IMG/VR virus record: IMGVR_UViG_3300045988_177154
Location: 32,001 to 96,000 of that record
From: a virus
Reading direction: 5' to 3' (one strand)
Length of the DNA stretch: 64,000 nt
Shown here: positions 13,133 through 59,262 of the stretch, in pieces
Position numbering within the stretch: the stretch's first letter is position 1
Layout: the number at the start of each line of letters is the position of its first letter
The notes under the pieces: model-generated
What the model was told of the DNA's origin: nothing
The model's database searches: none
The model's input: the letters and a program-made list of their open reading frames with translations, nothing else
Position numbers and translations under genes: made by a program

Positions 13133-13190
13133 CAATAAAAATCAAAAAATAAAAAATATTTTTCAAATGCTAAAATCTTTAATTCTTGGA

Positions 13191-13300: not shown

Positions 13301-13311
13301 GCTTATTTTCA

Positions 13312-23202: not shown

Positions 23203-23212
23203 TTATCAAATA

Positions 23213-24760: not shown

Positions 24761-24769
24761 TTGAATTAT

Positions 24770-36403: not shown

Positions 36404-36412
36404 GCGTTAAAA

Positions 36413-36527
36413 TAAGCGATTGTGAGCTGTTTTTATTAAAAGTCGATACATTTATCGAAAATCAGTTTTGACTGTTTTAGCATTAACTATATGACGATAT
36501 AGCGATGTTCAAAATCAGTTTTAGGTA
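36413..36527 (+). repeat. dispersed intergenic repeat, copy E
   Basis: GAGCTGTTTTTATTAAAAGTCGATACATTTATCGAAAATCAGTTTTGACTGTTTTAGCATTAACTATATGACGATATAGCGATGTTCAAAATCAGTTTTAGG. Confidence 0.8.
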
Positions 36528-39162: not shown

Positions 39163-39310
39163 ATTGTTGCTTACATCTGTAACTTATTGTAATAATGAAT
39201 AAGTGAGTTGTAAGGTAATACCTCATGTAGAGGACGAACTCCTAATTCAACTTGAACCGTTGAATCAAGTACATTCGTTAGAAATGACACAATTTGACCA
39301 TTTCCTTTAA
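39163..39310 (-). ncRNA. candidate omega-RNA scaffold overlapping the 3' end of the TnpB-like gene
   Basis: Position is typical for TnpB omega-RNA. A second non-coding copy with compensatory hairpin changes exists at 52353-52491. Confidence 0.5.
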
Positions 39311-40667
39311 GCTTATTTACTTTTTCCTTAATTTCTTTTTTATTTGATTTTGGTTTAACTCTTTTAGTCTTTGCCTTTTTTGGTAAAGATTTTTTGAGCT
39401 TAATATTAGTAGAACGAATCGCAATATTGATAGCAGCTAATAAATCTCTATCAATTTTACCAGTCGTAAATTCAATAGTTCTATCATTAACTACTCCTAT
39501 TTCTTTCGTTATTGGGTGCTCCTTACTAGTATTAAATGCAGAAACCTTTTTTACCTCAATTCCATACATAGTGGCTTTCTCTATAATTTTAGAATGAATT
39601 TGAGAATGATTCCATTTACCACCTTGTGAATTTAACCAAGATAAATCTTCAATATGAATTGTTTTACACTTCTGCTCTAATGCTAAATTTACAATTTCGT
39701 TTGACAAAAGCTTTGCTTGATAATCTTTTGTGTTAATAATTTTATTAGAAATATTTGAATAAAGATTTTTCCAAATTTCATATTTAGATTGATTTGTTAA
39801 CCTTAAAGCTTCATAAGATTTAAGTTTATCATATAAGATTTGTTTATTTTCATAAAGTTTATTGATTTTATATTCTGTTTCTTGGCTTCGTTTTGTGTTG
39901 ACAAATTCATTACTGAAATTACCTTTTCTATCAACAACAACAGAACTAAATAATTTAATTTTACCTATATCCACACCTAAGATTTTATCTTCTAACACAT
40001 AATCCCCCACTTCATATTCATAAGAGCAAATACCTATATATTGATTATCTCTTTTACGTTTAATAAATCTAGGCTTCGCAATTCTGCCTGTAAATCTTTC
40101 ATCTATACTACTTGGAAAGATTATTTCATATTCAATCCAATCTTTTTTGCTCACTTTTATTTCACAAATATTACCTTGTTTCATTCTGAATATTTGCTTT
40201 TCTGAAATAGTATAATCAAGATTGAATACAGCGCTTCGTGCTAATTCGGGTATGGAATTATTACGTTTAATATTGGCAATTCTACTTCTTGTTGGGTAAA
40301 GTTTTAATTTGTGTAATGAATTAAATAAATCTTCATTTATGTTAAAATCATTTTTAACTAATTGATTCCAAATGATGATTGCTTCTTGTTTTGACTTTAT
40401 TTCTCGTCTGATGTTTTCAAACAAGATATACGAGTGCCAGGTTTTATTATGCAACGGCCAGTCTTTTATTCGGAATTTAAGACTATCCCTCATATCCCTC
40501 CAAACATCGCCTCTGAGTTTAGATAAATCAATTTTATCCAAGAGAGCTCTTGTTTCATCATTAGAGAGAATAAAATTTAACTCATTTTGTAAGAAATCAT
40601 AAATAGGTATAAGTTCTGATGGCATATTTATATTAAAACTTTTCCAATGAACTTTTTTCTTTTTCAT
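39171..40667 (-). CDS. tnpB: TnpB-like RNA-guided nuclease homolog lacking the zinc-finger cysteines
   Basis: RuvC-I ILGVDIGK, RuvC-II TIHIEDLS and RuvC-III KIDRDLLAAINIA. The segment between AFNTS and DRD has no Cys. Lys-rich tail follows. Confidence 0.8.
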   Translation of the reverse strand: MKKKKVHWKSFNINMPSELIPIYDFLQNELNFILSNDETRALLDKIDLSKLRGDVWRDMRDSLKFRIKDWPLHNKTWHSYILFENIRREIKSKQEAIIIWNQLVKNDFNINEDLFNSLHKLKLYPTRSRIANIKRNNSIPELARSAVFNLDYTISEKQIFRMKQGNICEIKVSKKDWIEYEIIFPSSIDERFTGRIAKPRFIKRKRDNQYIGICSYEYEVGDYVLEDKILGVDIGKIKLFSSVVVDRKGNFSNEFVNTKRSQETEYKINKLYENKQILYDKLKSYEALRLTNQSKYEIWKNLYSNISNKIINTKDYQAKLLSNEIVNLALEQKCKTIHIEDLSWLNSQGGKWNHSQIHSKIIEKATMYGIEVKKVSAFNTSKEHPITKEIGVVNDRTIEFTTGKIDRDLLAAINIAIRSTNIKLKKSLPKKAKTKRVKPKSNKKEIKEKVNKLKGNGQIVSFLTNVLDSTVQVELGVRPLHEVLPYNSLIHYYNKLQM

Positions 40668-40794: not shown

Positions 40795-41145
40795 TTACCT
40801 CATAACAACTTCACAAATAATAACTTCTTCGCCATTATCAAAGTCAAAATCATCTTTGTATGGTAAGAATAAGTAAGAATCAGTACTATTATCGTAGTAA
40901 TATTGAGACTTCATATTGAATAGAATAATTAAGAGTTCTGTAATTTTATTCTTTGATTCATTTTGAATTTCAAGTTTGGATTGGTTTGTAACACCAATAT
41001 TATCAAAAGAGTAATTATAGATAGTAAAGTTAGAATGATGATTAACTTTATTTTTTAAGTATTCATAATTATCTTTATTGAAGTCTTTAATTTTAGATAG
41101 CGGAAAATTCAAGACTAAGTTTAATGTTTCTTCTTTAATTTTCAT
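40795..41145 (-). CDS. hypothetical protein, intact paralog of pseudogene 38957-39160
   Basis: Start set at MKIKEETL (AGAGGA RBS 8 nt upstream). Confidence 0.55.
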   Translation of the reverse strand: MKIKEETLNLVLNFPLSKIKDFNKDNYEYLKNKVNHHSNFTIYNYSFDNIGVTNQSKLEIQNESKNKITELLIILFNMKSQYYYDNSTDSYLFLPYKDDFDFDNGEEVIICEVVMR

Positions 41146-41749
41146 TATACCAATCCTCTTTAAAGTTATTTTCACCTTCACTAAATCTTACAGATTCAAA
41201 ATGTCCTTGAACGAGTTTTCTTACATAAAAATCATATTTATCCATAGGGAAGCTATTAACAGGTCGAACTACAAAACCTTCAATATCTTCAGTCAGATTA
41301 GCAGTAGCTTCTTTTACTACTTCATCAAATGTTCCAACCTTTGATAATTCTTTTACAATTGGGATTCCAAGTTCTTTAGCTCTTTTCTTAGTTGTTTCCC
41401 AATCTAAGATTAAATCATCTTCTTTAATTCCAAATAGCATATAATCAGATGGTAAATCATTATAAGGAACAGATTTTCTCCAATGAAGAAATTCTCCAAG
41501 TACAACTTCATTATCTTTTAATTTATCTTTAATTGGATAGTACCAATTGTTGATTGGATAAGTCCATTCTTTATTGTAATTATTGCCAGCTCTTGTAAAC
41601 CAAGTTTCTTTTCCTAAAGAAATATTAGAACCGTCCATTTTTTCAGTAGCAATTACTAAACCGTCATATCTATAATGATTTTTAAAGACATCATCATCTG
41701 TACCCTTTGACCCTTTCATATGAGGAGTTCTAGGAAATTTAAAAGTCAT
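41135..41749 (-). CDS. ATP-dependent RNA ligase (Rnl2/PF09414-like)
   Basis: FPRTPHM near the N-terminus. Motif I is EKMDGSN. Confidence 0.7.
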   Translation of the reverse strand: MTFKFPRTPHMKGSKGTDDDVFKNHYRYDGLVIATEKMDGSNISLGKETWFTRAGNNYNKEWTYPINNWYYPIKDKLKDNEVVLGEFLHWRKSVPYNDLPSDYMLFGIKEDDLILDWETTKKRAKELGIPIVKELSKVGTFDEVVKEATANLTEDIEGFVVRPVNSFPMDKYDFYVRKLVQGHFESVRFSEGENNFKEDWYNEN

Positions 41750-42409: not shown

Positions 42410-43411
42410 ATGACTTTAGTAGAGTATAAGGGTCTAACTGCCGATGTGATGTGGTGGGAAGAAGTCTCTGATGAAAAGTTAGAAGAATTAAGAAAAGAAT
42501 ATTATCAAAAACCAAGCATAAACGAAGTCAAAAAAGAATTAAAAACTATCTCTCGTGGTGGGAGCCTTATTAGTAAAGTTAATAAATATTATTTCAGAGA
42601 TTTACAAGCAAGAGTAAAGAAATGGAATAGTAAATGGGCAGTTGCTGATGTTTTTGAGAGTAATGCTCTAATGGGTATTTTTCTAGCTCGAATACACAAT
42701 CAAAATGTTTATACAAAAGAAGATGGCCCAGACATTAAGAAAATCGAAACTGCATTAAGAATTGGAGCAAAAGGAATAGCTGCACCTATTACTAATTTTA
42801 ATATTAAAAATATTGATAACTTATTGCTTTCAAAATATAATGTAAATAATAATTATTATGATTATTCTTGTGGTTGGGGAGTTAGACTTCTTTCAGCTAT
42901 GAGAAATAATGTTAATTATTTTGGTACAGACCCAAATCATGAGCTATATGAAAGATTACTTGAATTAGAAAAAGATTACAAATCAGTAGCAATGTTTCAT
43001 AACTCAACTGTTGACATTAGAAACACTGGCTCTGAAGTGCTTCATGAAGATTGGAAAAATAAAATGGGATTAGCTTTTTCAAGTCCTCCTTATTTCCTTT
43101 TAGAAGATTATAAGACTGGAGAACAATCTGCACAACAAGATACAAGTTATGAAGATTGGCAAGAATTATATTTAAGACCTACTTTTAGGAATATTAAAGA
43201 GTATCTTATTGATGAAGGTTATTTTATGATAAATATTAAGGATTATTCAAAATTCACTCTCGAAGCAGACAGCAAAAGAATTGCTATTGAAGAAGGCTTT
43301 GAATTTATTGAAAACATTCCACTTTCACCTATCAATAGATACAGTCCAAAAGATGAAAAAGTAGTCCAAAAATCAGATGAATATATTATGGTATTTAGAA
43401 AGAAGTTATAA
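42410..43411 (+). CDS. DNA methyltransferase (SPPY motif, N6-adenine/N4-cytosine class)
   Basis: AdoMet-binding-like YDYSCGWG...FGTDPN, followed about 70 aa later by FSSPPYF. Confidence 0.6.
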   Translation: MTLVEYKGLTADVMWWEEVSDEKLEELRKEYYQKPSINEVKKELKTISRGGSLISKVNKYYFRDLQARVKKWNSKWAVADVFESNALMGIFLARIHNQNVYTKEDGPDIKKIETALRIGAKGIAAPITNFNIKNIDNLLLSKYNVNNNYYDYSCGWGVRLLSAMRNNVNYFGTDPNHELYERLLELEKDYKSVAMFHNSTVDIRNTGSEVLHEDWKNKMGLAFSSPPYFLLEDYKTGEQSAQQDTSYEDWQELYLRPTFRNIKEYLIDEGYFMINIKDYSKFTLEADSKRIAIEEGFEFIENIPLSPINRYSPKDEKVVQKSDEYIMVFRKKL

Positions 43412-43412
43412 A

Positions 43413-43697
43413 ATGATTTTTTACCATGGAACAACTACTAATACTAAAATAAACAAAATCTTATTACCGCCAAATGAAACAGGTTTGCTTAGAGAAGATT
43501 TCAGAAAGAATTTACAAGATAAAGTTTTTATAACAATCTCTAAGCCATCTGCTATAAAATATGCTAAAAAAGCTGCTGAGCGATTTGGGGGAGAAGCAAT
43601 TGTTTATACAGTAAGACCGGAGTTTAGTTCTTTAATCAAAAAAGGAACAGAATATATTTGTAACAAAGCTTTCATAAAAAGTTTTGAGAAAATTTAA
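43413..43697 (+). CDS. mini Arr-like (ADP-ribosyltransferase-fold) protein
   Basis: MIFYHGTT..., VFITIS, AIKYAKKAA and EAIVYTVRPE are colinear with the Arr blocks FYHGT, IYFSA, AVWGAELA and GYIYIVEP. Only 94 aa, and the acidic third catalytic position is not evident. Confidence 0.35.
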   Translation: MIFYHGTTTNTKINKILLPPNETGLLREDFRKNLQDKVFITISKPSAIKYAKKAAERFGGEAIVYTVRPEFSSLIKKGTEYICNKAFIKSFEKI

Positions 43698-43706
43698 TAT
43701 AATGTG

Positions 43707-43735
43707 TTGACAAGTTGTAATCTCTATGATACAAT
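43707..43735 (+). promoter_or_regulatory. sigma-A type promoter
   Basis: TTGACA-17-TACAAT. Confidence 0.75.
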
Positions 43736-43771: not shown

Positions 43772-44731
43772 ATGACTAAAACAATTAAAGGATTTATTAA
43801 AACTTTCAACAAGCACGAATTAGGAAAAGAATACAGCAAAACAAATTCTTATTTAGCTGATGCTATTAGATTTGAATTAAAAGATGTTTACAATGCTGGT
43901 TCAGATTATTCTATCATCTATCCATACATTTATGAAGTAGAAGCTAATGTTGAAGATGTTTGGAACATTTCAAAAGGACAAACATGGTTGCCTGATTATT
44001 TCCAAACTACAAAAGCTGTTGCAGTTCGTGAAGTCTCATATTTAGAATTAGTACAAGCTATTGATTTAACTTCTTCAACAAAAGAAAAATTTGAAAAAAT
44101 CTATAATGGCGATTTAACTAAAGAAGAATTTGAAACTACTTGGGCTTCTTTAACTAAGAGAAGTTTTGAAGCATTGGGCCACAATCAACGTTTTCTATAT
44201 ATTGCTTGTTTATCTCAAGATAAATATGAATTAACAAAACCTGAAAAGGAATTGTCAGAAACAACTTTAATGCTTCATGCAAAATATGGTAAATTGTTTA
44301 ATAAAGATTTACGAGTAAGTTCAAAAGTCAAAATGAACATTGCAACAGAAAATGAAATCATTAACGCTCTTGAAACAGACTTATTTGATGTTCCAAACAT
44401 TCTTGAAAATTTAGTTGAAACAGAAAATTATGATTTTGATTTTGTTCTTAAGTTATTAAAAGAATCAAATTACTTAATTTTTAATAAATTAACAACAGCT
44501 TATGGATATAACACTGGTCGTTGGGAATTTGATAAAATTGATACTAACAGAGCTAAAGCAGAATCTTATTTAAATCCAATTAAAGCTTTCAATGATTACA
44601 AAGACCATGAAGAGTTAATCTTGAAAGGATTATTATTGAATAACTTTTTAATCAAAGGAGCAGATTATTCAGAATTTGAATCTATTCTAAAAATTAAAGA
44701 AGAATTAGAAGTGGAATTAAAAACTTTATAA
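43772..44731 (+). CDS. divergent member of paralog family F
   Basis: Shares the PYIYEVEANVEDV block and overall length with family F. The rest is diverged. Confidence 0.55.
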   Translation: MTKTIKGFIKTFNKHELGKEYSKTNSYLADAIRFELKDVYNAGSDYSIIYPYIYEVEANVEDVWNISKGQTWLPDYFQTTKAVAVREVSYLELVQAIDLTSSTKEKFEKIYNGDLTKEEFETTWASLTKRSFEALGHNQRFLYIACLSQDKYELTKPEKELSETTLMLHAKYGKLFNKDLRVSSKVKMNIATENEIINALETDLFDVPNILENLVETENYDFDFVLKLLKESNYLIFNKLTTAYGYNTGRWEFDKIDTNRAKAESYLNPIKAFNDYKDHEELILKGLLLNNFLIKGADYSEFESILKIKEELEVELKTL

Positions 44732-44788
44732 GAAAAGAACAACCTAATGGTTGTTTTTCTTATGTCAAAAAAGAAAGGAGTTATTAAA

Positions 44789-45784
44789 ATGATTATTGAT
44801 TGTTATGTGTTTTCAGATGTAGCACTCAAACTAAATCACACTTATTATAACATTGATGATTACAAATTACTATTATATAACTTAAAGGATTATCGAGTTG
44901 ATTCGTTTTCAATCTTTACTTTTATTTATAAAGTAAAAGTAAATTCAGATGATGTACATTATCTTGGTAAATATGGAGTATATTCACTTAAGTATCAAGT
45001 AGTAGAAGAAGTTCCTTTTGGAGATTTTGTAGCAAAACTTTCACTTGGGGGATTAGAAAAAGCTGGACTAATGTCTATTATCAAAGGTACTATGCCCGAA
45101 GATAAAGCTATTAAAAAATATGAAGATATTCTAACTCTAAATAAGTATGGGTATTCATTAACTTTTATTCAAGCCCTCAAATTTCATGCTATACTAAGCC
45201 AAAAGAAATATGAACTACCAATCCTTTATGTAGATGAACAAGGTTGGTATTTAGTTAGATTATTTGAATATTACAATAGAAAATATGAAGCAAAAAATAC
45301 TTTGTCAAATTCTACTAATCATTGTGTAGAACAAGAAAGGATATTAGGTTCAAAAAAATTTGAGGAACATTTTGACATTCAAAATGCTACACTTGCGAAT
45401 GAAAGAGAACTTCAGACTTTTTATGATTTAATAAAAGGAAGAAAGCTAACACAAGAGAAATTTGAGCAGTGTTGTGCTGAATTTATGAATTTATTAGACG
45501 ATGATTATAGAAAGGAATATTTAGCAAAAATAGTTGTATTTTCCAATTATGAAATACCTGAAAAGTATAAAGATATATTTTTACCAGAAGCTGTATTTAA
45601 ATACCCAGATTGGATAAAAGACTTAAAAGAAGAGCATATCTCTTGGCAATATGCTGATGTAACAAGATTCCTTATGATTGGATATAAAGTGAAAAATGGT
45701 AATTACAACCTAGAATGGGCAAATTCAATTATGAATGCTAGAAGCATTTTAAAGAACGACAATTACAAATATATAGAAATTTAA
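44789..45784 (+). CDS. paralog family F protein
   Basis: MIIDCYVFSD start (AAAGGAG RBS). Family blocks are present. Confidence 0.7.
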   Translation: MIIDCYVFSDVALKLNHTYYNIDDYKLLLYNLKDYRVDSFSIFTFIYKVKVNSDDVHYLGKYGVYSLKYQVVEEVPFGDFVAKLSLGGLEKAGLMSIIKGTMPEDKAIKKYEDILTLNKYGYSLTFIQALKFHAILSQKKYELPILYVDEQGWYLVRLFEYYNRKYEAKNTLSNSTNHCVEQERILGSKKFEEHFDIQNATLANERELQTFYDLIKGRKLTQEKFEQCCAEFMNLLDDDYRKEYLAKIVVFSNYEIPEKYKDIFLPEAVFKYPDWIKDLKEEHISWQYADVTRFLMIGYKVKNGNYNLEWANSIMNARSILKNDNYKYIEI

Positions 45785-45792
45785 TTTAAAAA

Positions 45793-45820
45793 AGCAACTA
45801 AAAAGTTGCTTTTTATTTTT
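45793..45820 (+). terminator. intrinsic terminator
   Basis: AGCAACT-AAAA-AGTTGCT plus a T run. Confidence 0.75.
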
Positions 45821-45833
45821 TTACAAAAATGTG

Positions 45834-45862
45834 TTGACAAACTAAAAATCATATTATATAAT
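45834..45862 (+). promoter_or_regulatory. sigma-A type promoter
   Basis: TTGACA-17-TATAAT. Confidence 0.8.
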
Positions 45863-45901
45863 ATAACTACAATAAAGAAATGAAATGAGAGATAAACAAA
45901 A

Positions 45902-46681
45902 ATGGAAATTGCAAAACAATACCACGCAAAAATCAATACAGCCGGAGTTGCTTCAGCTTATAATATTTCTACTGTAACTCGAACTCTTAGCCAGGCAGTA
46001 AAAGATGCTAATCTTGCACTTCATTCAGTAGAAGTACTAACAGAAGTTCCAACAGATAACAAATTAAAAGCAGAAGTACTTGCTGCTCATACTTATCGAG
46101 TAACATGGCAAGGAAAACTAGACATTGAAGTGATTCTCCTTGTTAAATTAGTAAATGGTGCTCAAGTACTAACTATTGATGATGATTTTGCTAATATTGA
46201 ATTGACTAATTCAATTACTATTGAACCACAAGGGCTTATCCGTATGGTTGAAAATGGTGAATTATTCCTTGAAGCTGAATACCAACGTGGATTTGTTTGG
46301 AGCCACGAACACAAAGAAGAATTTTTGCTGGATTGGATTAAAGGTGGAGTTATTATTACTCCTTACCTTGTAAGTTATTACAATGGTGATAACCACATTT
46401 ACGAAGTTCTTGATGGCAAACAACGTTTACAAACAGTTTATGAATTTCTAACAAACAAAATTGCTGTTAAAGGATTGTTGTTTGAAGAATTGCTAGACTA
46501 TGATAAACGCAAAATCCTTAATCGTAGAATTGTAGGCTTGACTATGACTCAAAAATATGGTGACAACGCATATGAGCGCCCAGACATGAAAACTCTTGTA
46601 AATGCTTTCGTGAATTTCAATAAAGGAATTACAGTTGATGAAGAAGTAATCGCCAAAGCAAAAGAATTGATTGAAGAATAA
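45902..46681 (+). CDS. DUF262 / ParB-like nuclease-superfamily domain protein
   Basis: EYQRGFVW ... VLDGKQRLQT is the DUF262 (GmrS-like) signature. No DUF1524/HNH half. Confidence 0.65.
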   Translation: MEIAKQYHAKINTAGVASAYNISTVTRTLSQAVKDANLALHSVEVLTEVPTDNKLKAEVLAAHTYRVTWQGKLDIEVILLVKLVNGAQVLTIDDDFANIELTNSITIEPQGLIRMVENGELFLEAEYQRGFVWSHEHKEEFLLDWIKGGVIITPYLVSYYNGDNHIYEVLDGKQRLQTVYEFLTNKIAVKGLLFEELLDYDKRKILNRRIVGLTMTQKYGDNAYERPDMKTLVNAFVNFNKGITVDEEVIAKAKELIEE

Positions 46682-46704
46682 GCAACCCCACGGTTGCTTT
46701 TTTC
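46682..46704 (+). terminator. intrinsic terminator
   Basis: GCAACC-CCAC-GGTTGC plus a T run. Confidence 0.7.
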
Positions 46705-46753
46705 TTTTAAAAGTTATATAATATAATAAAGAGCGAAAGAAAGAGGTATGAAA

Positions 46754-47743
46754 TTGTTTATTGATTGTTATTTCTTATCAAACATTGTTAGAAAACCTGA
46801 CCATATTTACTATACTAATTATGATTATATGTTTGGCGAATTTTTCTATTTTGATTTAAACCTTTGTAATTTAGACAATATACGTTTTAACACGTACCCT
46901 TATAAAGTTAGAGTTGACTCAAATGATGTGTTTTATATTGCTAATAATGGCTTAAGAGCACTCAAATTTCAAATAGTAGAAGAAGTTAATATTTTAGATT
47001 GGATTGAAGCTTCATCTTTGAAAGATAGAGCAAAGAGTCATTTGAAATCAATTTGTAATGGTTCTGTACTTCAAGATAAAGTGTTAGAATTTTATGATAA
47101 AACTATTATAACTCCAACTGCTTTATTGACTACAGCTCAAATTTTTAAATTGCATGCTATTTTGAGCCAGAAAAAATATGAATTGCCTACAAGAGTAATC
47201 ACTAATGGAAATAAAAGCTATTTGCGAGCTTATGAATTTTATGGCAGAGAATATGAATTTGATTCTAATCATAAACCTTTTTTCAAAGTGTTTGAAGCTG
47301 AAGCTGCCTTGGGGTCTAAAAGATTTGAATATATTGAAAATGAAGATAGTGAAATCCTTATGTCAGATGTGTCAAGTTTTTTAAAATTAGTAGCATCAAG
47401 AAAATTAACTCAAAATCAATTTGAGTATTGTTGTATGTACAGTCCTTTTTTAACTACAGCTGACAAAAAGAAATTTGTTAATACAGCATTACGAGCAAAT
47501 TATGAAATTCCTCATGAGGGCAGACACTTATTCTTTCCCGAAATCATATTTAAACACCCAAGTTGGGTAACAGAATTAAAGACGAAACATTTAGACAATG
47601 ATTATGCTAGAGCTAGATTACTCTTGTTAGGCTATAAATTGAAAGATTATAATTATCATCATTCTTATTGGGCTACTAATATTGAAAACACTAGACGAAT
47701 TTTTAAAAATGCCGTGTATCAATATATAGAACTTGATGATTAG
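46754..47743 (+). CDS. paralog family F protein
   Basis: TTG start 7 nt after AAGAGG gives (M)FIDCYFLS, aligned with the other family N-termini. The ORF-track ATG at 46748 is only 1 nt from the RBS. Confidence 0.65.
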   Translation: MFIDCYFLSNIVRKPDHIYYTNYDYMFGEFFYFDLNLCNLDNIRFNTYPYKVRVDSNDVFYIANNGLRALKFQIVEEVNILDWIEASSLKDRAKSHLKSICNGSVLQDKVLEFYDKTIITPTALLTTAQIFKLHAILSQKKYELPTRVITNGNKSYLRAYEFYGREYEFDSNHKPFFKVFEAEAALGSKRFEYIENEDSEILMSDVSSFLKLVASRKLTQNQFEYCCMYSPFLTTADKKKFVNTALRANYEIPHEGRHLFFPEIIFKHPSWVTELKTKHLDNDYARARLLLLGYKLKDYNYHHSYWATNIENTRRIFKNAVYQYIELDD

Positions 47744-47759
47744 ATAGAAAGAGAAAACT

Positions 47760-48740
47760 ATGAAAATTAAATGCTATTTATTTACAGGTATAGCAAAACA
47801 AGAAAATCATACTTATTATTCATTAGGAGATAATCGAGGTTCAAGATTTTATTATAATTTGAGAGAGGGACTCAATAGAGAAGAAATTAAAATAGCTCCA
47901 TTTGTTTATGAAGTAGAGTTAGACTCAGAAGATATATGTACAATTACTTCTTATTATTTAGAAACAACAAAATTTAAATTAGTAAGAGCAGTTGAATTTA
48001 GAGAAGTTGTAGAAGTTTTAGATGTTTCAAGTAGAACTCGAAACGAATTGAATGCTATCCTTAGATGTGTGAGTGATAAAGCACAAATCATTCAACAATA
48101 TAAAAAATTGCTTTCAAAAGATTATAGTGATTTATCTAGGATAGAGTTTTATAAATTTATTGCTATTATAAGTCAAAAACATTATAAATTACCACTAATT
48201 GAATTTTCTTGCTTTAGAGCATTTAAATATGTTCGGCTATTGGAATTTTATAATCAGCCACATAGATATGCTCTTGCTGGAAGGGGTTATAGTTTTGTAG
48301 CTTATAATAAAGAAAAATTTTATGGAAGTAGAATATTTGAAAATCTGTCAGATTGTACTATAAATGATTTGCTTAGAGAACACGATATTAGGGTACTTTT
48401 ACAGACTAGGAAATTGTCGCAGAAAAAATTTGAAGAATATTGTGAATATAAGTTTAAAAATAAAGATAAGATTTATAATGCAGATGAATGTGTGGGGGCT
48501 GGATATGAAATTCTACCAAAATATAAAGAGCAATTCTACCCCTATATAATCTATTCTAATCCTGAGTTAGCATTAGATTTGGTAAAAAAAGGCTTGAGCA
48601 CCAATGATTATCAAACTTTATTACTTTTAAGAAAAGGATATAAAATCAGAGATTTTGATTATGATAATAATTATAGAGTCTTTGCTACAACACAAAAAGC
48701 CCAAAAGATTTTCATGAAAAATGATTATAAATATATTTAA
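47760..48740 (+). CDS. paralog family F protein
   Basis: MKIKCYLFT start. Family blocks are present. Confidence 0.7.
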   Translation: MKIKCYLFTGIAKQENHTYYSLGDNRGSRFYYNLREGLNREEIKIAPFVYEVELDSEDICTITSYYLETTKFKLVRAVEFREVVEVLDVSSRTRNELNAILRCVSDKAQIIQQYKKLLSKDYSDLSRIEFYKFIAIISQKHYKLPLIEFSCFRAFKYVRLLEFYNQPHRYALAGRGYSFVAYNKEKFYGSRIFENLSDCTINDLLREHDIRVLLQTRKLSQKKFEEYCEYKFKNKDKIYNADECVGAGYEILPKYKEQFYPYIIYSNPELALDLVKKGLSTNDYQTLLLLRKGYKIRDFDYDNNYRVFATTQKAQKIFMKNDYKYI

Positions 48741-48757
48741 GAGAAAGGATAAGAATT

Positions 48758-49741
48758 ATGGCTGTTAAATGCTATTTATTTACAAGTGTGGCTAGACAAT
48801 TAAATCATACTTATTACTCATTAGAATATAATAAATCTTTATACTTTTACCATAATTTAAATGATTATCATAAAGAAGTGAATAAAATTCTATTAAATCC
48901 CTTTGTTTATGAAGTAGAAGTTGAGCCTAAAACAGTGATTGCTTGTGATTCCTTAGGTTTAGTTGCAACGGAATTTAAACTTGTTAGAGAAGTAGAACTT
49001 ACAGAACTTATCAATGCTTATAAATTTTCAATAAAAACGAAAAATGAAATCAATTCTATTCTTAATGGGCTTGCTGATTCATCAGAAGTAATTTCTTTAT
49101 ATAAAAGATTTTTTAAAAAATCTAAATGGGACCTGTCTAAAATTGAAAAATTCAAATTCTTAGCTATATTGAGTCAAAATCACTATAAATTACCTGTTAT
49201 GAAGATTCGTGAAAATTCTGGTATGGAATATGTTAGGATATTGAAATTCTTTAACAAACCTTACATACCCGCCTTTAGAAGCAATGATAGTACGTTTGAT
49301 AGATTTATTGAAATAGAAGAACTTTATGGAAGCAAAGATTTTGAAACTGGTGTAGAATTACCTATGAAAGAACTGGTTTGCCATATTAACTTGAAACAAT
49401 ATATAGAAACAAGGAAATTATCCCAAGAACAATTTGAAGAGTATTGTGAATATATGTTTACTGAAGAAAGAACAATATATTACACTTCTCATGCTATAGC
49501 AGCTGGATATAAAATTTTACCAAAATACAAAAAACATTTTTATCCATATTTAATTTATTCTGACCCCGAAATGGCATTAGAATTGCTTAATAAAAGGAAT
49601 TTAACTCGTACTGCAGTTATTTATTTCTATGAAAAGAATTATAAAATAGGTGATTACAATTACTCTAATGATAAAGTTAGAGAAACAAAAGCAATCTTTG
49701 TAAAAGAAGATGATTATAAATGTATTGAAGTAGCAACTTGA
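48758..49741 (+). CDS. paralog family F protein
   Basis: MAVKCYLFT start. Family blocks are present. Confidence 0.7.
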   Translation: MAVKCYLFTSVARQLNHTYYSLEYNKSLYFYHNLNDYHKEVNKILLNPFVYEVEVEPKTVIACDSLGLVATEFKLVREVELTELINAYKFSIKTKNEINSILNGLADSSEVISLYKRFFKKSKWDLSKIEKFKFLAILSQNHYKLPVMKIRENSGMEYVRILKFFNKPYIPAFRSNDSTFDRFIEIEELYGSKDFETGVELPMKELVCHINLKQYIETRKLSQEQFEEYCEYMFTEERTIYYTSHAIAAGYKILPKYKKHFYPYLIYSDPEMALELLNKRNLTRTAVIYFYEKNYKIGDYNYSNDKVRETKAIFVKEDDYKCIEVAT

Positions 49742-49797
49742 TAGTTGCTTTTTCTTTTTGTTTATTATATAATATAATAGAGCGAAAGGAGTTAATT

Positions 49798-50781
49798 ATG
49801 ATTATAAAATGCTATTTGTTTTCAGATAGAACTAGACAATTAGGTCATACTTATTATTCATTAGGAATGGGAGATTATTTGTATTTTGAGCTTAGCTCAT
49901 ACCAAGATTATTTTCACATTGGTGACCCATTTGTTTACGAAGTAGAAGTTGATACAGACAAAATATTGTATTGTGATAGTGAAAGTGTACACTCTATTGA
50001 GTACAAGATAAGTAGAGTAATCAAATTTGAAGAATATATTTTTACGTTTGAGTTTCCAAAAGATGATTTAAAAGAATTACTTAATATACTTGATGGAAAT
50101 ATTGACAAAAATGAAATGATAGAATTTTATACTGCAATCATTAGTAAAGATGTTTACAAAGTAAATAGGTTTGAGCAATTAAAACTTTTTGCAATATTAA
50201 ATCAAACAAAATATGAGCTGCCAGAAGTAACAATAGAAAAAGAATTTCAAATGGATTACTATGTTAAGCTTTTAATTTATTACAATAAACCTTATCAAGC
50301 TATTTGTAAACATTCCGCCAAAATTTCTGGGTTTAGAAAAGAACTTAATAAGCAGAGAATGCGGGGAACTACTACTTTTGAAACAATTTCAGATGAAATC
50401 ACCGAAAGATTAGCTTATAATTATTTTTTAGATGAATATATACTAAATAGACAACTTACTCAAGAACAATTTGAAAGTTTATGTGAGTACTTCAAGTGGA
50501 ATACACATATTTTTAAATTTAGAATAAAACTTAGTTCAATTGCAGCTGGTTACAAAATTCTACCAGAACATAGAAGTCTTTTTTATCCTTTTGTGCTTTA
50601 TCATGGAATAGAAGATAATTTGGATATAATTGACCGTGAGAAAAAGCCTGATGAATTATTAAAGATTTTATTTAACTGCGGTTATAAATTTAAAAATGTT
50701 GATTATAGCGACATGCCTTCACATGATAAAATTACTGAAGCAAAAATCATCTTTCAAAAAGGATTTAAATATATAGAATAA
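49798..50781 (+). CDS. paralog family F protein
   Basis: Start moved to MIIKCYLFS (AAAGGAG RBS). Confidence 0.7.
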   Translation: MIIKCYLFSDRTRQLGHTYYSLGMGDYLYFELSSYQDYFHIGDPFVYEVEVDTDKILYCDSESVHSIEYKISRVIKFEEYIFTFEFPKDDLKELLNILDGNIDKNEMIEFYTAIISKDVYKVNRFEQLKLFAILNQTKYELPEVTIEKEFQMDYYVKLLIYYNKPYQAICKHSAKISGFRKELNKQRMRGTTTFETISDEITERLAYNYFLDEYILNRQLTQEQFESLCEYFKWNTHIFKFRIKLSSIAAGYKILPEHRSLFYPFVLYHGIEDNLDIIDREKKPDELLKILFNCGYKFKNVDYSDMPSHDKITEAKIIFQKGFKYIE

Positions 50782-50894
50782 GCAACTCTAAGCTGTTTTA
50801 TTTTAAAGCCGATACATTTATCGAAAATCAGTTTTAACTGTTTTACTGTTGATTATATGACGATATAACGACATTCAAAATCAGTCTAAGCAAT
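50782..50894 (+). repeat. dispersed intergenic repeat, copy F
   Basis: GCAACTCTAAGCTGTTTTATTTTAAAGCCGATACATTTATCGAAAATCAGTTTTAACTGTTTTACTGTTGATTATATGACGATATAACGACATTCAAAATCAGTCTAAGCAAT. Confidence 0.85.
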
Positions 50895-50925
50895 ATGAAA
50901 ATTATAAAAAGAACAATAAAAATAT

Positions 50926-50983: not shown

Positions 50984-51409
50984 ATGGCTACTACTGAAGA
51001 ATTACTAACAGAAGCTAGAGAATATTTTGCTCAATTGGAAAAACCAAATGAAGAATTAAATGTTGACTATAATTCTGATTATGTGTTATTTGATGAAATA
51101 GATAAAGAAAATCTAAATAAAAATGGTAGACGAGTATTGCTACTTGACTTAAATAACGGAATGAAAGCTGCATTTTTACTAATACCAGATATGGAACAAA
51201 ATCGTTTTACTTTATCTAAGATTAAAGAAACTGCATCTGTACGATTACTTACAAAAGAAACAAAAAATACAGTAAAACAATTTACTTCTCATAAAGGATT
51301 TTTCCCTACTCTAACTTTAGAACAACAAGGGGATATTACTGGAGCTGTTGTTAAATTAAAAGATGGTTCTTATGCAACAATTACTGAACAATTGGAGGTA
51401 ATTAAATAA
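50984..51409 (+). CDS. hypothetical protein (141 aa, no Cys), first gene of the E1/Ubl/JAB cassette
   Basis: Behind promoter 50926-50954. Its stop overlaps the start of the E1-like gene (TAATG). Confidence 0.6.
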   Translation: MATTEELLTEAREYFAQLEKPNEELNVDYNSDYVLFDEIDKENLNKNGRRVLLLDLNNGMKAAFLLIPDMEQNRFTLSKIKETASVRLLTKETKNTVKQFTSHKGFFPTLTLEQQGDITGAVVKLKDGSYATITEQLEVIK

Positions 51410-52089
51410 TGCTGAAAATTAAAGAAGGCCGAAAATATTATATTGTACTAGGTGCTGGTGGAACTGGGTCTTGGCTTGCACAATTCCTATCTAAAATTGA
51501 AGTTCCAGTATACCTTATTGATGGTGATGTGGTGGAACCTAAAAATGTTCTCCGTCAAAACTTTGTCAATGAAGAAGTAAATATGAGCAAAGCAGAAATT
51601 GCTAAAAAATGGGATTTTGCTTATGTGCCTGAATTTTTGAGTGATACTTCTATTATTGATGAAATTATTGCTCAAGAAGAAGGCACACCAGTACTTGTAG
51701 GTTGCTTAGATAACAATGCTACTCGTAAAATTGCTCAAGATGTATTCTACAATCCTAATTACAAAGACATTTTGTGGTTAGACGGTGGAAATGCAGAGCG
51801 ACATGGTCAAGCTTATGTTGCGGCTAAATATGATAATGAAGTTCATTATGAAAGTCCTATTGCTCTTGACCCAGCATTCCAAAACTTTGAAGGTGATGAA
51901 CGTAGACCAGACCAGATTTCATGTGCTGAACAATCTGAGTCTGCGCCACAAAACGTAACTGCAAACGTTACTAGTGCTACATTGTTATTTAATCTAATTA
52001 ACTTGATTGAAGAAAATGCTATGTTGCTTGGAAATAAATTTATGTTCCACACAAAATTATGTAGTATGACAACAACAGAAATTGTTTGA
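51409..52089 (+). CDS. ThiF/MoeB/E1-like adenylyltransferase
   Basis: Rossmann GAGGTGS, then IDGDVVEPKNVLRQNF (the DxDxVExxNLxRQ signature of E1-like enzymes). Cys in PDQISCAEQ. Confidence 0.75.
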   Translation: MLKIKEGRKYYIVLGAGGTGSWLAQFLSKIEVPVYLIDGDVVEPKNVLRQNFVNEEVNMSKAEIAKKWDFAYVPEFLSDTSIIDEIIAQEEGTPVLVGCLDNNATRKIAQDVFYNPNYKDILWLDGGNAERHGQAYVAAKYDNEVHYESPIALDPAFQNFEGDERRPDQISCAEQSESAPQNVTANVTSATLLFNLINLIEENAMLLGNKFMFHTKLCSMTTTEIV

Positions 52090-52114
52090 CAAAGTTTGAT
52101 TAACCTGATAAAAT
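52086..52114 (+). promoter_or_regulatory. sigma-A type promoter overlapping the E1-like gene stop
   Basis: TTGACA-17-TAAAAT. Confidence 0.65.
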
Positions 52115-52145
52115 AAATTTATAAATATGAAAGGAGTTCATTGTC

Positions 52146-52310
52146 ATGGCTTTTAATCCTAGTCAGATTAAATTTGTTCAGTACAAAGGAGAAAAATTTC
52201 CCTTGAATGGAGCAGATTATAATAAAGTTCTTGATTTGCTGAAAATTCCAAAATCAGCAACAGTAACAATTGTAGGTAATACAATTATTGTTACCACTCG
52301 AAAAAGTTGA
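52146..52310 (+). CDS. small Ubl-like (possible beta-grasp) protein, 54 aa
   Basis: Hand-translated MAFNPSQIKFVQYKGEKFPLNGADYNKVLDLLKIPKSATVTIVGNTIIVTTRKS. AAAGGAG RBS. Behind promoter 52086-52114. Paralogous to the N-terminus of 52537-53070. Confidence 0.5.
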   Translation: MAFNPSQIKFVQYKGEKFPLNGADYNKVLDLLKIPKSATVTIVGNTIIVTTRKS

Positions 52311-52319
52311 TAAAAATAG

Positions 52320-52348
52320 TTGACAAACGCTAAATCACTTGTTATAAT
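52320..52348 (+). promoter_or_regulatory. sigma-A type promoter driving the orphan omega-RNA-like element and gene 52537
   Basis: TTGACA-17-TATAAT. Confidence 0.8.
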
Positions 52349-52352
52349 GAAA

Positions 52353-52491
52353 TTAAAGGAAATAATCAAATTGTGTTATTTCTAATAGATGTACCATATT
52401 TAATCATTAAATTTGGAGTCTATCCTCTATTTGAGGTATTACCTTGCAACTCACTTATTTATTACAATAAGTTACAGGTGTAAGCAACAAT
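52353..52491 (+). ncRNA. orphan omega-RNA-like element (copy of the 3' segment of TnpB-like gene 39171-40667)
   Basis: 139 nt alignable to 39310-39163 (minus strand) with compensatory hairpin substitutions and in-frame stops. Begins about 5 nt after the -10 box of promoter 52320-52348. Confidence 0.6.
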
Positions 52492-52536
52492 GTAAATATA
52501 AAATAAAAAATAAAATTTTGAAAGGAGCTATTTAAA

Positions 52537-53070
52537 ATGGCTACAAATATTTATGAAAACGTTACGGAGATTGTTTTCCAAAACAATCGCTTCCCACTGA
52601 ATGGTGCTTCTGTTGATGATGTACTTGCATTGCTAAACGTCCCAGACAATGCAGAATTGGCAGTAGAAGGTACTGCTCTTCTAATTACAGAAAAATCTGG
52701 TACAAAGGGTGCTGACCCTGACCCAGAATTGATTGCTAAGTTGGCTGCTACTTTTGGTGGCGAAGCAATCAAAGGTGCTAGTGTGAAACTCCACCGTGCT
52801 TCAAATGGTAAATGGGTACCAAAAATCCCTGGTTTCACTCTTGATGAAGTTGCTTACTTGCTTGAAAAAGATGTAGAACTTTCAGAAGAAATGACTGATG
52901 AACAAGTTGAAATTGCTCGTCAAGCTCTTGAACAACGTGATGCTGAAATTGAAGCACAACGTGTTGCAGAAAAACAAGCTTTAGTAACAGAAGCTCTTGA
53001 AGGCTCAGGTCTTAACTTCACTTATGACCAATTGGTCTGTTTGCAAAAAGCTCTTGATGCTATTCGCTAA
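52537..53070 (+). CDS. Ubl-like N-terminal module fused to an acidic helical C-terminal region
   Basis: EIVFQNNRFPLNGASVDDVLALLNVPDNAELAVEGTALLITEKSG aligns with the 54-aa ORF. Visibly more G/C-rich codons than neighbouring genes. Confidence 0.6.
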   Translation: MATNIYENVTEIVFQNNRFPLNGASVDDVLALLNVPDNAELAVEGTALLITEKSGTKGADPDPELIAKLAATFGGEAIKGASVKLHRASNGKWVPKIPGFTLDEVAYLLEKDVELSEEMTDEQVEIARQALEQRDAEIEAQRVAEKQALVTEALEGSGLNFTYDQLVCLQKALDAIR

Positions 53071-53098
53071 AAACAACACACTATTTAACAAAAAAAGA

Positions 53099-53130
53099 AA
53101 ATCACACTTCAGTGTGATTTTTTTATTTTT
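53099..53130 (+). terminator. intrinsic terminator after gene 52537-53070
   Basis: AAATCACAC-TTCA-GTGTGATTT plus a T run. Confidence 0.8.
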
Positions 53131-53145
53131 TAATACACTTTTCGG

Positions 53146-53174
53146 TTGACAAATTCATAATTGTTTGATAGAAT
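53146..53174 (+). promoter_or_regulatory. sigma-A type promoter
   Basis: TTGACA-17-TAGAAT. Confidence 0.7.
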
Positions 53175-53204
53175 ATATAATATAATAAGAAAGGGGAAAA
53201 TACA

Positions 53205-53942
53205 ATGCCTATTTTAGAACTAGACGCTAGTCAATATGTGAAGCAAGGTCGAATTTTTAAGAAATTTGATTCTAATTTGCTTGATTCATATATGGACGGT
53301 AGACAAAATAACTATAATATTAACTTAGCAGAATTAGATGACCAAATTTCTGATGGTATCGTTTATGCTGACCGAAATGGTAAAATGATTTACAAATTTG
53401 GAGCTAAGAAAATTATTCAAACAGCAATCACAAATGGATTGGAAATTAGTGGGTTGTCTAAGGATTTAGAAATGAAGCATTATTCATTTTGGGTACCTGA
53501 TTTATATTTTGTTTCATTTTACAGTTTTAATCCAAATGAAGATTTATATATTGCATACCGTAGCAAAGATGAAGAATTTATTTGCTTGACAAATATTTGG
53601 CCTGACGGTTCGAGCTATGCAGAGGATTATTTCCCTAATGGTGACCGATTAACTCTTAAAAGACTTTGTAAGGGTAGCATGATGTCAGATGTTAGTTCGA
53701 GCGATTATGACGCATGGAGAAATAATGCTGTCACTCGTGCTAGTCAATTTGTAAATAAATTTGTAAGTGCTCGAGGAAATTCTGACTTAGATTTTGTTGG
53801 TAGTGCATTGCGAAGCAAAGTACCGAGTCATAATATTAAAAAATGTGCAGTATTTCTTGGCACAATTACAAAAGAACAAGAAAATGTAAACACTTATGAA
53901 GAGTTCATGGAATGGACTAAAAATACAAAATGGTTTAAATAA
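53205..53942 (+). CDS. hypothetical protein, tentative E2/UBC-like candidate
   Basis: FNPNEDLYIAYRSKDEEFICLTNIW recalls the E2 HPN...ICL arrangement. Position is between the Ubl and JAB genes. Motif-level guess only. Confidence 0.3.
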   Translation: MPILELDASQYVKQGRIFKKFDSNLLDSYMDGRQNNYNINLAELDDQISDGIVYADRNGKMIYKFGAKKIIQTAITNGLEISGLSKDLEMKHYSFWVPDLYFVSFYSFNPNEDLYIAYRSKDEEFICLTNIWPDGSSYAEDYFPNGDRLTLKRLCKGSMMSDVSSSDYDAWRNNAVTRASQFVNKFVSARGNSDLDFVGSALRSKVPSHNIKKCAVFLGTITKEQENVNTYEEFMEWTKNTKWFK

Positions 53943-53965
53943 AAAGAAAGTGAGAAATAAATAAA

Positions 53966-59151: not shown

Positions 59152-59262
59152 AAGACGCTAAAACTGTTTCTAAGCTGTTTTACTGCAAAGTCGATACATT
59201 TATCGAAAAACAGTTTTGACTGTTTTTGCGTTTCACTAGTGACGATATAACAGGTATCAAAA
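59152..59262 (+). repeat. dispersed intergenic repeat, copy G
   Basis: CTAAGCTGTTTTACTGCAAAGTCGATACATTTATCGAAAAACAGTTTTGACTGTTTTTGCGTTTCACTAGTGACGATATAACAGGTATCAAAAC. Confidence 0.8.

Follow-up and report, generated by a model that had tools for sequence, protein, structure and literature searches.

Results

A lineage-specific multigene family in a large oral phage

A lineage-specific multigene family, whose products are soluble proteins of ~330 aa, resides in the ~330-kb genome of a human oral phage. It evolves by birth and death: old sequence types are differentially kept or lost. Gene content turns over fast, and the sequences themselves are not in a rapid arms race. Each genome holds 5-10 mutually diverged copies of the gene: types V and P are each represented by one solitary copy, and the main array, always at the same site, contributes 3-9.

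The window, that is, the whole 64-kb stretch of DNA that was analysed, was scanned in all six frames with a family HMM. Seven full-length paralogs (~330 aa) and one C-terminal remnant were found, and nothing further above E = 0.018. This is the set named in a preliminary description made from the sequence alone (six copies in tandem, one more at 36630-37622 and a truncated one), whose ORFs are all present where it had placed them. The members and the elements among them are as follows.

23028-24800, + strand: IS607-type element, 5'-truncated (boundaries from comparison with the related genome L018)
24782-25036, + strand: type V remnant, C-terminal ~85 residues of a member (HMM E = 3e-16, model positions 244-325)
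36630-37622, + strand: type P, solitary, GTG start, 6 kb upstream of the array (HMM E = 6e-127)
43772-44731, + strand: type Q, divergent member, first gene of the array (47 ortholog clusters, 74-100% identity)
44789-45784, + strand: type A member (HMM E = 2e-132)
45902-46681, + strand: GmrSD_N (DUF262, ParB-like) gene, not a family member (Pfam PF03235, E = 4e-15)
46754-47743, + strand: type B member, the protein chosen for modelling (AlphaFold pLDDT 91, pTM 0.89)
47760-48740, + strand: type C member with mosaic alleles (first 100 nt homogenised with paralog H)
48758-49741, + strand: type D member (77% identical allele in L007; missing in L001 and L008)
49798-50781, + strand: type E member, last of the array, with its own promoter

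In pairwise BLASTP, which is independent of the HMM, the six typical copies matched one another at E = 1e-24 to 1e-84, and most other copies were matched at E = 1e-4 to 6e-11 by the type Q protein. The placement of the latter as a distant member was borne out by a leave-one-out HMM built without 43772-type sequences, which matched it at E = 2e-18 over residues 5-188 only; by this test its C-terminal half has no recognisable homology to the family. Paralogs within a genome are 18-45% identical (maximum 61-64%, for C/H). The motifs quoted in the preliminary description coincide with conserved islands of the alignment, namely N-terminal MxIKCYLFS, PFVYEVEVD, AILSQKKYELP, RKLTQxxFExxC and GYKIK...YKYIE. 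Its start codons at 44789, 46754, 49798 and 36630 (GTG) are better than those of the longest ORFs on homology and on promoter and terminator positions, and the DUF262/ParB-like gene is, as it had said, the sole non-member within the array.

Truncation of one member by an IS607-like element was confirmed by comparison with L018, where a full-length counterpart, P0120, occupies the syntenic site. The remnant, whose HMM match falls in ORF 24728-25033, is 64% identical to the C terminus of P0120, and the element takes the place of the first ~735 nt present in the full-length gene. The tnpB gene of the element (23213-24565; NCBIfam TIGR01766, 35 bits against a cutoff of 32; guided_TnpB, E = 6e-9) shares 90% identity with its counterpart in a resolvase-tnpB pair of L001. 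DNA homology to L001 starts within the 3' end of tnpA, of which just the last ~200 nt are left. No close relative of this TnpB element was found in bacterial genomes.

Distribution of the family

Searches of Pfam, PHROGs, NCBIfam, PADLOC and PDB sequences gave no significant profile match for the family, in keeping with the initial failure to recognise any known domain. A Pfam search at E up to 1 with all seven members returned DUF7819 alone, at 0.079 and for one member; PF12699 was not matched. At E up to 0.01, none of the seven members matched PADLOC-DB, whose 5027 models cover defence and not anti-defence proteins, and no homology of any member to a defence system or a host protein was found. 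When 1.84 billion proteins were searched exhaustively with the family profile, 58 clusters only (50% identity) were returned. Members were found on large, phage-size metagenome contigs (262-357 kb) and nowhere else; the contigs traced came from the human mouth, and the homologues are annotated as 'hypothetical protein' only. The family was not found in 185,579 bacterial and archaeal species representatives, a search sensitive to close relatives, and neither megablast nor tblastn detected it in the INPHARED phage collection. One long 'distant' match, P0161 (728 aa), is a bacterial repeat protein that matches a short beta-strand motif and was judged spurious.

The array lies in a plastic accessory region

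The window encodes a DNA methyltransferase, a polynucleotide kinase, RNA ligases, a PARG/macro protein, GmrSD_N, SfsA and an SLOG protein; no capsid, tail, portal or terminase genes were found across its 64 kb. These surroundings support the earlier assignment of the array to a phage accessory region; the genome is that of a large phage, and this part of it is plastic and non-structural. In all 21 related loci (21/21) the array is flanked at its 5' side by a small p94/p106 gene and at its 3' side by a p141-ThiF pair, which carries its own promoter. The families nearest to ThiF are the PRTRC-system ThiF and, among CBASS-type E1-E2 proteins, the E1 domain; p392 is weakly similar to PRTRC protein A. 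The scores for ThiF and PRTRC_A lie far under the family cutoffs. A ubiquitin-like Gly-Gly is not present at the C terminus of p141. Assignment of the neighbour p106 as an Arr-type ADP-ribosyltransferase was unsupported by Pfam, NCBIfam and PDB sequences. The GmrSD_N gene, for which the PADLOC DUF262 matches are NsnA and PD-T4-2_A, has a private promoter and terminator and is missing in clades L009-L020.

Array content varies among close relatives

The array was compared among 21 related loci. Its size ranges from 3 to 9 copies, drawn from a repertoire of more than 20 sequence types. Checking copy number among relatives, as the preliminary description had proposed, revealed sharp differences in number and content between close relatives. 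Genomes L001-L008 carry 4 to 7 array copies despite a 100% identical Q protein, and their flanks (p94/p106, Q, p141, p177) show 97-100% nucleotide identity; more distant clades carry 3 to 9 copies. Type Q is present in 20 of the 21 arrays, the sole exception being L017. Type A, restricted to the window's clade alongside the GmrSD_N gene, is 98-100% identical in L001-L008 and missing in L009-L015. Type B alleles of relatives are 80-100% identical, and type C is missing in L008. The last array position is taken in L007 and L009-L013 by type I (33% identity to E); the E and I lineages coexist in clade L014 as types O and S. Outside the array, type P forms 50 ortholog clusters (71-97% identity), is IS607-truncated in L003 and is missing in L006, L012 and L014.

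Unequal crossover at the conserved 5' codons removes copies; among the others, some have been homogenised through gene conversion and some frameshifted or interrupted by IS elements, and exchange between lineages adds to these processes. Single copies are dispensable, being deleted, frameshifted or IS-interrupted in some genomes. We considered whether the conserved 5' DNA is a programmed recombination site and rejected this as the main explanation (synonymous-codon identity 339 observed versus 306 expected, of 518).

The types are ancient and under purifying selection. The same paralog types recur in distant clades at 46-67% identity, and within-type dN/dS is 0.15-0.31 (0.035-0.11 for the flanking enzymes). 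A search along the alignment for diversifying segments, also proposed at the outset, gave none: in sliding windows of 40 codons dN/dS reached a maximum of 0.89 and never exceeded 1. The rapid diversification originally proposed thus holds for the gain, loss and reshuffling of cassettes by recombination, which are fast, and not for the sequences, which are old and constrained.

Structure and properties of the proteins

AlphaFold produced a confident two-part model of the type B protein (pLDDT 91). The N-terminal half consists of a six-stranded beta domain and a helical bundle bearing an invariant Q-x-x-Y-x-L-P motif; the remainder is helical and more variable. The first residues form a core beta-strand of the confidently folded domain (pLDDT 96), and the first 20 residues are the best conserved stretch of the family. 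In the type Q model confidence was limited to residues 1-180. No internal repeats were detected in the helical part (hhalign between sub-alignments, probability at most 0.5%). No transmembrane segments were predicted in family members; their net charge ranges from -12 to +11 and their aromatic content from 14 to 18%. Invariant residues are chiefly Tyr, Ile, Gln, Leu, Pro and Gly.

Foldseek comparison of the type B model with the PDB gave no fold match (best E 0.44, TM 0.2). Against BFVD it returned two family members ('Siphoviridae sp. ctHip2') and otherwise weak local matches, including partial, non-significant ones (E 0.06-2.5, TM at most 0.23) to giant-virus DUF4116 and ankyrin proteins. 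Local Foldseek matches of ~100 columns to three or four proteins involved DUF7666 (E 0.035-2.6), which had no Pfam match at E up to 1; we found no mention of the DUF7666 domain in the literature. The type Q model had no PDB match either; rifampin ADP-ribosyltransferase at E 4.6 is non-significant and was not relied on.

Predicted expression units

As judged from consensus motifs, the array is predicted to be organised as separate expression units with terminators and strong sigma-70-like promoters, listed below.

43707-43735, + strand: sigma-70-like promoter, TTGACA-17-TACAAT with TG extension, upstream of Q and A (consensus match only)
45789-45862, + strand: terminator hairpin (45789-45814) after A, then a 12/12 consensus promoter (45834-45862) for GmrSD_N
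46680-46731, + strand: terminator (46680-46699), then TATAATATAATAAAG promoter motif (46717-46731), ahead of B-C-D
49732-49782, + strand: terminator (49732-49749) after D, then TATAATATAATAGAG promoter motif (49768-49782), ahead of E

The total number of sigma-70-like sites in the region equals the shuffled expectation, and the predicted promoters are consensus matches only. The promoter and RBS block of E also precedes types H, I and S in relatives. Rfam holds no family for the repeated intergenic element.

Discussion

Our preferred reading, held tentatively, is that the copies constitute a repertoire of host-interaction or counter-defence binding proteins. They would probably be non-enzymatic intracellular binding proteins, expressed from host-type promoters. 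The shared N-terminal half, with its beta domain and Q-x-x-Y-x-L-P-bearing bundle, may have a common docking or effector role, and the variable helical remainder, with its diversified surface charge, may direct each paralog to a separate target. The array would then be a repertoire for coping with polymorphic host factors, most likely defence systems, and which cassettes a given phage carries would reflect the hosts encountered. Gain, loss and reshuffling of copies are as expected for genes that would deal with the host. The lack of positive selection in any sliding window, seen with few alleles, runs contrary to a binding interface engaged in a direct, fast arms race.

Phage accessory (hyperplastic) regions contain variable counter-defence genes (Silas et al., bioRxiv 10.1101/2023.04.06.535777). 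Because the locus fits this published pattern, a role in host range, exclusion or anti-defence, as the preliminary description suggested, stays plausible. Shared with such regions are variable content (here 4 to 7 copies) within conserved flanks (97-100%) of near-identical genomes, individually dispensable genes, cassettes swapped by recombination, and anti-restriction or repair neighbours. The known regions hold unrelated small ORFs, whereas here all variable genes belong to one ~330-aa paralog family, of which no member is known to act in counter-defence.

Families A (PF12699) and B of phiKZ and SPN3US likewise belong to giant phages, are expanded and partly tandem, vary in number and have conserved N termini. 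Giant-phage head paralog families range from 2 to 20 members between phages and lie partly in adjacent genes (gps 138-154), and their N-terminal propeptide can be identical (PMC5694885). By analogy, our copies could be virion head or ejection proteins, packaged with the DNA and injected, with the N terminus, where conservation of the family peaks, acting as a capsid-targeting signal. We consider this unlikely: Pfam gave no match, PF12699 included; the N terminus is a folded core strand and not a flexible propeptide; the [AGS]-x-E cleavage motif of the prohead protease occupies no alignment column in at least 60% of the 16 types; the window is devoid of structural genes; and the promoters are host sigma-70-like. 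It is similarly doubtful that the copies are exclusion or competition proteins against co-infecting phages or satellites (superinfection exclusion or phage-encoded defence), one per competitor. The accessory-region behaviour of the array would suit such a role, as would the presence inside it, in one clade, of the GmrSD_N/DUF262 gene, whose closest PADLOC models are of defence; but no member matches a PADLOC defence model, the membrane segments common among exclusion proteins are missing, and no nuclease, NTPase or toxin-like domain was detected.

A new fold is compatible with catalysis, and residues Y19, Y50, Q139, Y142 and Y250 are invariant in all types, with D37, D58, K71, E77, K94 and E183 near-invariant, as an enzyme family of diversified substrate specificity, modifying for example nucleic acids or the cell envelope, might require. 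Such a family is rather improbable, since type Q retains the N-terminal half alone, types P, A and B carry K or R in place of the YEVEV glutamates, and there is neither a cofactor- or nucleotide-binding motif nor any likeness to enzyme folds; no conserved catalytic residue set is apparent in the alignment columns. Direct adjacency of the array end to p141-ThiF in all clades examined, together with the PRTRC-like and E1-like affinities of ThiF and p392, raises the idea that the copies are interchangeable partners (adaptors or substrates) of this cassette. They might then be its specificity modules, the swappable targeting repertoire of a phage ubiquitin-like conjugation system. We give both forms of this idea very little credence: within one phage lineage, adjacency does not count as independent evidence, ThiF and PRTRC_A score far too low, p141-ThiF has its own promoter and p141 no terminal Gly-Gly, and the solitary P and V copies do not adjoin ThiF. 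Less exotic is the alternative that a fold unseen in the PDB may serve in each paralog to neutralise another host defence system. Least credible are functionless duplicates kept by chance in a recombination-prone region: the dispensability of single copies would fit, but dN/dS is well below 1 for every type, frames are intact at 18-45% paralog identity, and types are conserved between clades.

Giant viruses and poxviruses have expanded repeat-protein families (ankyrin/PRANC, BTB-kelch, DUF4116), which are presumed host-interaction adaptors. Like the family described here, these families comprise many diverged paralogs of helical architecture with a shared module and a variable part; unlike them, our family has no detectable internal repeats and no Pfam repeat match, and its Foldseek matches to them are non-significant. 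Poxvirus 'genomic accordions' (K3L amplification) are also tandem viral arrays whose copy number is altered by unequal recombination, but they are recent amplifications of near-identical copies, whereas the copies here are ancient and each represents its own conserved type. The T4-type internal-protein locus belongs, with the phage accessory regions above, among the closest known systems.

Large phages are common in the human mouth yet have hardly been studied, and for most of their genes a function is still to be assigned. The locus is a clean natural experiment, with many near-isogenic genomes that differ mainly in their cassettes, more than 20 types of one family and a confidently predicted structure that has no solved counterpart, and the remodelling of the array by unequal crossover and gene conversion at the conserved 5' end is documented at base-pair resolution. 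If the copies are host-interaction or counter-defence proteins, comparing the cassettes of each phage with the host strains or defence repertoires of the same metagenomes could expose their targets, and the family would be a new fold in the anti-defence toolbox.

Members of the paralog family

Seven reading frames of ~320-330 aa were present in the ORF list at the positions reported in the preliminary description, and the motifs quoted there proved to be the conserved islands of the family alignment. Members are designated here by sequence type (letters).

24782-25036, type V (fragment)
36630-37622, type P
43772-44731, type Q
44789-45784, type A
46754-47743, type B
47760-48740, type C
48758-49741, type D
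49798-50781, type E

Aligned end to end, the copies are 19-37% identical to the first copy. When every stop-to-stop frame in the window was scanned with a family HMM, all seven copies scored E = 1e-91 to 1e-133 and a single fragment, in ORF 24728-25033, scored E = 3e-16; nothing else scored better than E = 0.018, and no further member was found. Pairwise BLASTP and a leave-one-out HMM served as checks against circularity of the family HMM. In BLASTP, the six typical copies matched one another at 1e-24 to 1e-84, and the divergent 43772 copy (Q) matched most others at 1e-4 to 6e-11. An HMM from which all 43772-type sequences had been removed still found Q (E = 2e-18), over residues 5-188 only. 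The C-terminal half of Q has diverged past recognition, in accord with AlphaFold confidence limited to residues 1-180.

Array content differs among related loci

We fetched 21 related loci, located members by HMM and defined types as clusters at ≥70% identity. The layout was constant throughout: a solitary V lies ~9 kb upstream of p379, a solitary P between p255 and YpsA, and the main array between a small gene, p94/p106, and the p141-ThiF pair. At least 16 full-length types were found, and more than 20 with divergent clades included. The window and seven of the loci (L001-L005, L007 and L008) encode a 100% identical Q protein.

Main arrays with identical Q (brackets mark the place of the non-member gene GmrSD_N)
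Window, L002: Q A [GmrSD_N] B C D E
L001: Q A [ ] B C E
L003-L005: Q A [ ] B C H D E
L007: Q A [ ] B C D I
L008: Q A [ ] B E

The clade with 90% identical Q has neither A nor GmrSD_N; its array reads Q B C H (M) D I, and two of its genomes carry a TnpB or IS607 insertion. In the clade with 80% identical Q, every one of the nine positions holds another type, one of them split by a frameshift and one a remnant. L017 has three copies and no Q, L020 has eight, and L019 contains a split I/O hybrid gene. Copy number therefore does vary among related phages, as the preliminary description had proposed checking: the main array spans 3 to 9 positions, and its content differs even at 100% identical Q.

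The GmrSD_N (DUF262) protein (45902-46681) occurs without the DUF1524/HNH nuclease half, and its residues 1-110 gave no domain match. It is restricted to the window's clade and always accompanies type A, as if the two were one inserted block.

Copies are lost and exchanged by recombination and insertion

In L008, C and D are deleted, with the junction within conserved 5' codons: the gene opens as C's ATGAAAATTAAATGCTATTT and goes on as E. The deletion arose by unequal crossing-over between homologous sequences encoding K-C-Y-L-F. Divergence is mosaic. Between the window and L007 the flanks are 98-100% identical, B 84% and D 83%; between the window and L009-L013, Q is 90% identical, and B and C 96%. 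Window C is 99-100% identical to L009 C over ~800 nt and 84% identical across the first 100 nt, a stretch in which it is 95% identical to the paralog H. Window C is thus a mosaic allele, produced by gene conversion. IS elements and frameshifts inactivate family copies in relatives, and the V remnant, correctly described earlier as truncated by an IS607-type element, is one case of such inactivation in the window.

At conserved residues of the 5' end, 339 codon identities were observed versus 306 expected, of 518, a slight rise only, on which count a programmed DNA-level recombination switch was rejected as the main explanation. Recombination at the 5' end seems instead to follow from conservation of the protein.

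TnpB-type elements (IS605/IS607 family, some with a serine-recombinase TnpA) are dispersed in the region and polymorphic between near-identical genomes. They were seen in L001, L003, L005, L006, L008, L009 and L011-L014 and in the window.

39171-40667 (-), TnpB-type element
23213-24565 (+), TnpB-type element

The first of these, a 498-aa TnpB, is shared by the window and L002 and missing from L001 and L003-L005. Such elements disrupt family members, an RNA ligase gene and other genes; in L014 (6963-9299), a 204-aa RNA ligase is broken by one. A DNA methyltransferase in L012 (8639-9640) is split into two ORFs. The split methyltransferase and the disrupted ligase indicate that gene loss is tolerated by the whole neighbourhood, not by the array alone.

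Age of the types and selection

The types are old: the same ones recur between clades at moderate identity (C-H-K 56-64%, D-J 67%, E-O 61%, I-S 48%, M-N 46%), and A, B, P and L group more loosely (33-38%). The last position in the window's clade alternates between E and I. Because clade L014 holds both E-like and I-like lineages, this alternation reflects differential retention rather than replacement by a newly evolved allele.

Nei-Gojobori dN/dS, computed within types (figures are rough, since recombination inflates apparent divergence)
Types P, B, C, D, E, H, I, Q: 0.15-0.31
Type A (divergence almost nil): 0.54
ThiF, YpsA, SfsA, RNA ligase, p177, p141: 0.035-0.11
p255, p379 (unknown neighbours): about 0.24

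In 40-codon sliding windows no type exceeded 0.89; ratios peaked over residues ~61-120 and over the final ~40 residues. From these values we conclude that the family genes are functional and under more relaxed constraint than the enzymes, with no positive selection at the sliding-window level. The rapid diversification of sequences proposed in the preliminary description was not borne out, given the age of the types and these ratios, and dN/dS in 40-codon windows located no diversifying segments.

The family is confined to one phage lineage

The phage collection INPHARED gave no close relative of the window (G+C 25-34%, four tRNA genes). L002, on a 324,989-bp contig, is identical to it over the entire region; IMG/VR holds three related viral contigs (262-315 kb), and BFVD two family members, both from 'Siphoviridae sp. 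ctHip2'. When 5.8 billion protein clusters were searched with a profile, 105 matched, none of which carried a functional name. Many sit on 300-357 kb metagenome contigs; those looked up were human oral metagenomes, with some records labelled 'human.oral.metagenome'. Searched exhaustively with HMMER, 1.84 billion cluster representatives yielded only 58 clusters (~14 full length, the others fragments), and the family is accordingly limited to this phage lineage. One bacterial repeat protein among the 58 looks spurious as a member. The genomes of 185,579 bacterial and archaeal species yielded no close relatives of the TnpB element or of the family.

Predicted fold and conserved residues

Members had no match in Pfam, PHROGs, NCBIfam or PADLOC, in agreement with the earlier statement that no known domain was recognised, and the family profile (A1) matched no PDB sequence. 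AlphaFold modelled type B with confidence from a 44-sequence alignment (mean pLDDT 91, pTM 0.89): residues 1-77 form a six-stranded beta domain, and the body that follows is helical and contains short beta bridges. Foldseek comparison of this model with solved structures gave no match (best E 0.44, TM about 0.2). Among predicted viral structures, the two ctHip2 members were the only full-length matches (E = 1e-23 to 1e-24, TM 0.8-0.9); weak local matches of ~100 columns to DUF7666 and rIIB-type proteins were non-significant, as were low-TM matches to giant-virus DUF4116 and ankyrin repeat proteins.

The proteins have neither transmembrane-like segments nor detectable internal sequence repeats; aromatic content is 14-18%, pI 5.1 to 9.0 and net charge -12 to +11. 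Y19, Y50, I100, Q139, Y142 and Y250 are invariant in the 44 sequences, nearly invariant positions are for the most part hydrophobic, and the Glu of the YEVEV motif is Lys/Arg in types P, A and B. This residue pattern suggests a conserved scaffold with no obvious active site.

Expression signals and a repeated element

The array is not one operon. Hairpin-plus-T-run terminators lie after A, GmrSD_N and D, and sigma-70-like promoters of consensus or near-consensus sequence lie ahead of Q, GmrSD_N, B, E and p141. As promoters these are no more than matches to the consensus, and promoter-like sites in the region total the same as the shuffled expectation. One promoter-like motif, TATAATATAATAGAG, occurs 7 times in the window versus 1.1 expected.

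7893, 16045 (-), 46717, 49768, 50944, 55208 and 58059, motif TATAATATAATAGAG

In relatives it stands with an identical ribosome-binding block ahead of types E, H, I and S, and its excess over chance suggests a promoter class shared by many genes of the region besides the family. We infer that the array may be expressed early, by host polymerase.

An intergenic element of ~110 nt, with copies 80-87% identical, contains the short palindrome CGATACATTTATCG and matches no Rfam family. It sits right after type E, right before type P and, in L018 (1462-1698), right after a full-length V.

50785-50895 (+), ~110-nt repeat
36408-36519 (+), ~110-nt repeat
13190-13307 (-), ~110-nt repeat
59168-59252 (+), ~110-nt repeat

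Neighbouring genes

No capsid, portal, terminase or tail genes were found in the 64-kb window. It encodes an N6/N4 DNA methyltransferase, a polynucleotide-kinase-like protein, a zeta-toxin/AAA_33 kinase, RNA ligases, a PIF1-like helicase, SfsA, a YpsA SLOG protein, an SLT transglycosylase, an AAA_5 ATPase, a PARG/macro protein, GmrSD_N and a ThiF-family protein (nearest family, PRTRC ThiF). In T4, tRNA that host anticodon nucleases have cut is mended by a kinase and a ligase, and restriction is blocked by methyltransferases; the gene neighbourhood therefore leans towards counter-defence, which is context, not proof. The two kinase-type proteins, two RNA ligases and the microbial PARG/macro-domain protein form an RNA-repair/ADP-ribose-removal set, suggestive of counter-measures against tRNA-cleaving and ADP-ribosylating host defences.

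15032-16021 (-), 28239-29279 (+), 32262-33278 (+), 41135-41749 (-) and 61298-62083 (+), RNA-repair/ADP-ribose-removal set
50984-55144, conserved cassette after the array: p141, 226-aa ThiF-family protein, p177, p245, p392
43377-43697, small gene always ahead of the array (p94/p106)

By similarity, the ThiF protein comes closest to the PRTRC-system ThiF family (E = 4e-13, a score far below cutoff) and to the E1 portion of CBASS-type E1-E2 proteins, and p392 faintly matches PRTRC protein A; the cassette could be a phage E1-like system. The small gene contains FYHGT...ISKP...VYTVRPE, a pattern reminiscent of Arr-type ADP-ribosyltransferases, but sequence searches of Pfam, NCBIfam and the PDB did not support the resemblance.

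Interpretation

These comparisons show a lineage-restricted, structurally unassigned multigene family undergoing birth-and-death evolution in a phage accessory region. Tentatively, and with somewhat less than even chances, the family may be a repertoire of binding proteins that act inside the cell in host interaction or counter-defence; all copies would share the N-terminal half, and the target would be set by the rest of the protein. The published concept of phage accessory regions (bioRxiv 10.1101/2023.04.06.535777) supports the prior for such a repertoire.

The main competing explanation is a family of virion or ejection-protein paralogs of the giant-phage kind (PMC5694885), against which stand a folded N-terminus in the predicted model, a missing protease motif and the non-structural gene context. 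The copies might otherwise be proteins for competition or exclusion, enzymes of a new family, partners of the E1-like cassette next to the array, or neutral duplicates.

Large viruses with variable multigene families, and phages with accessory regions, are already known. Here the protein family is uncharacterised, as is its predicted fold, and the case is resolved unusually well. The array family is a good candidate for experimental work.
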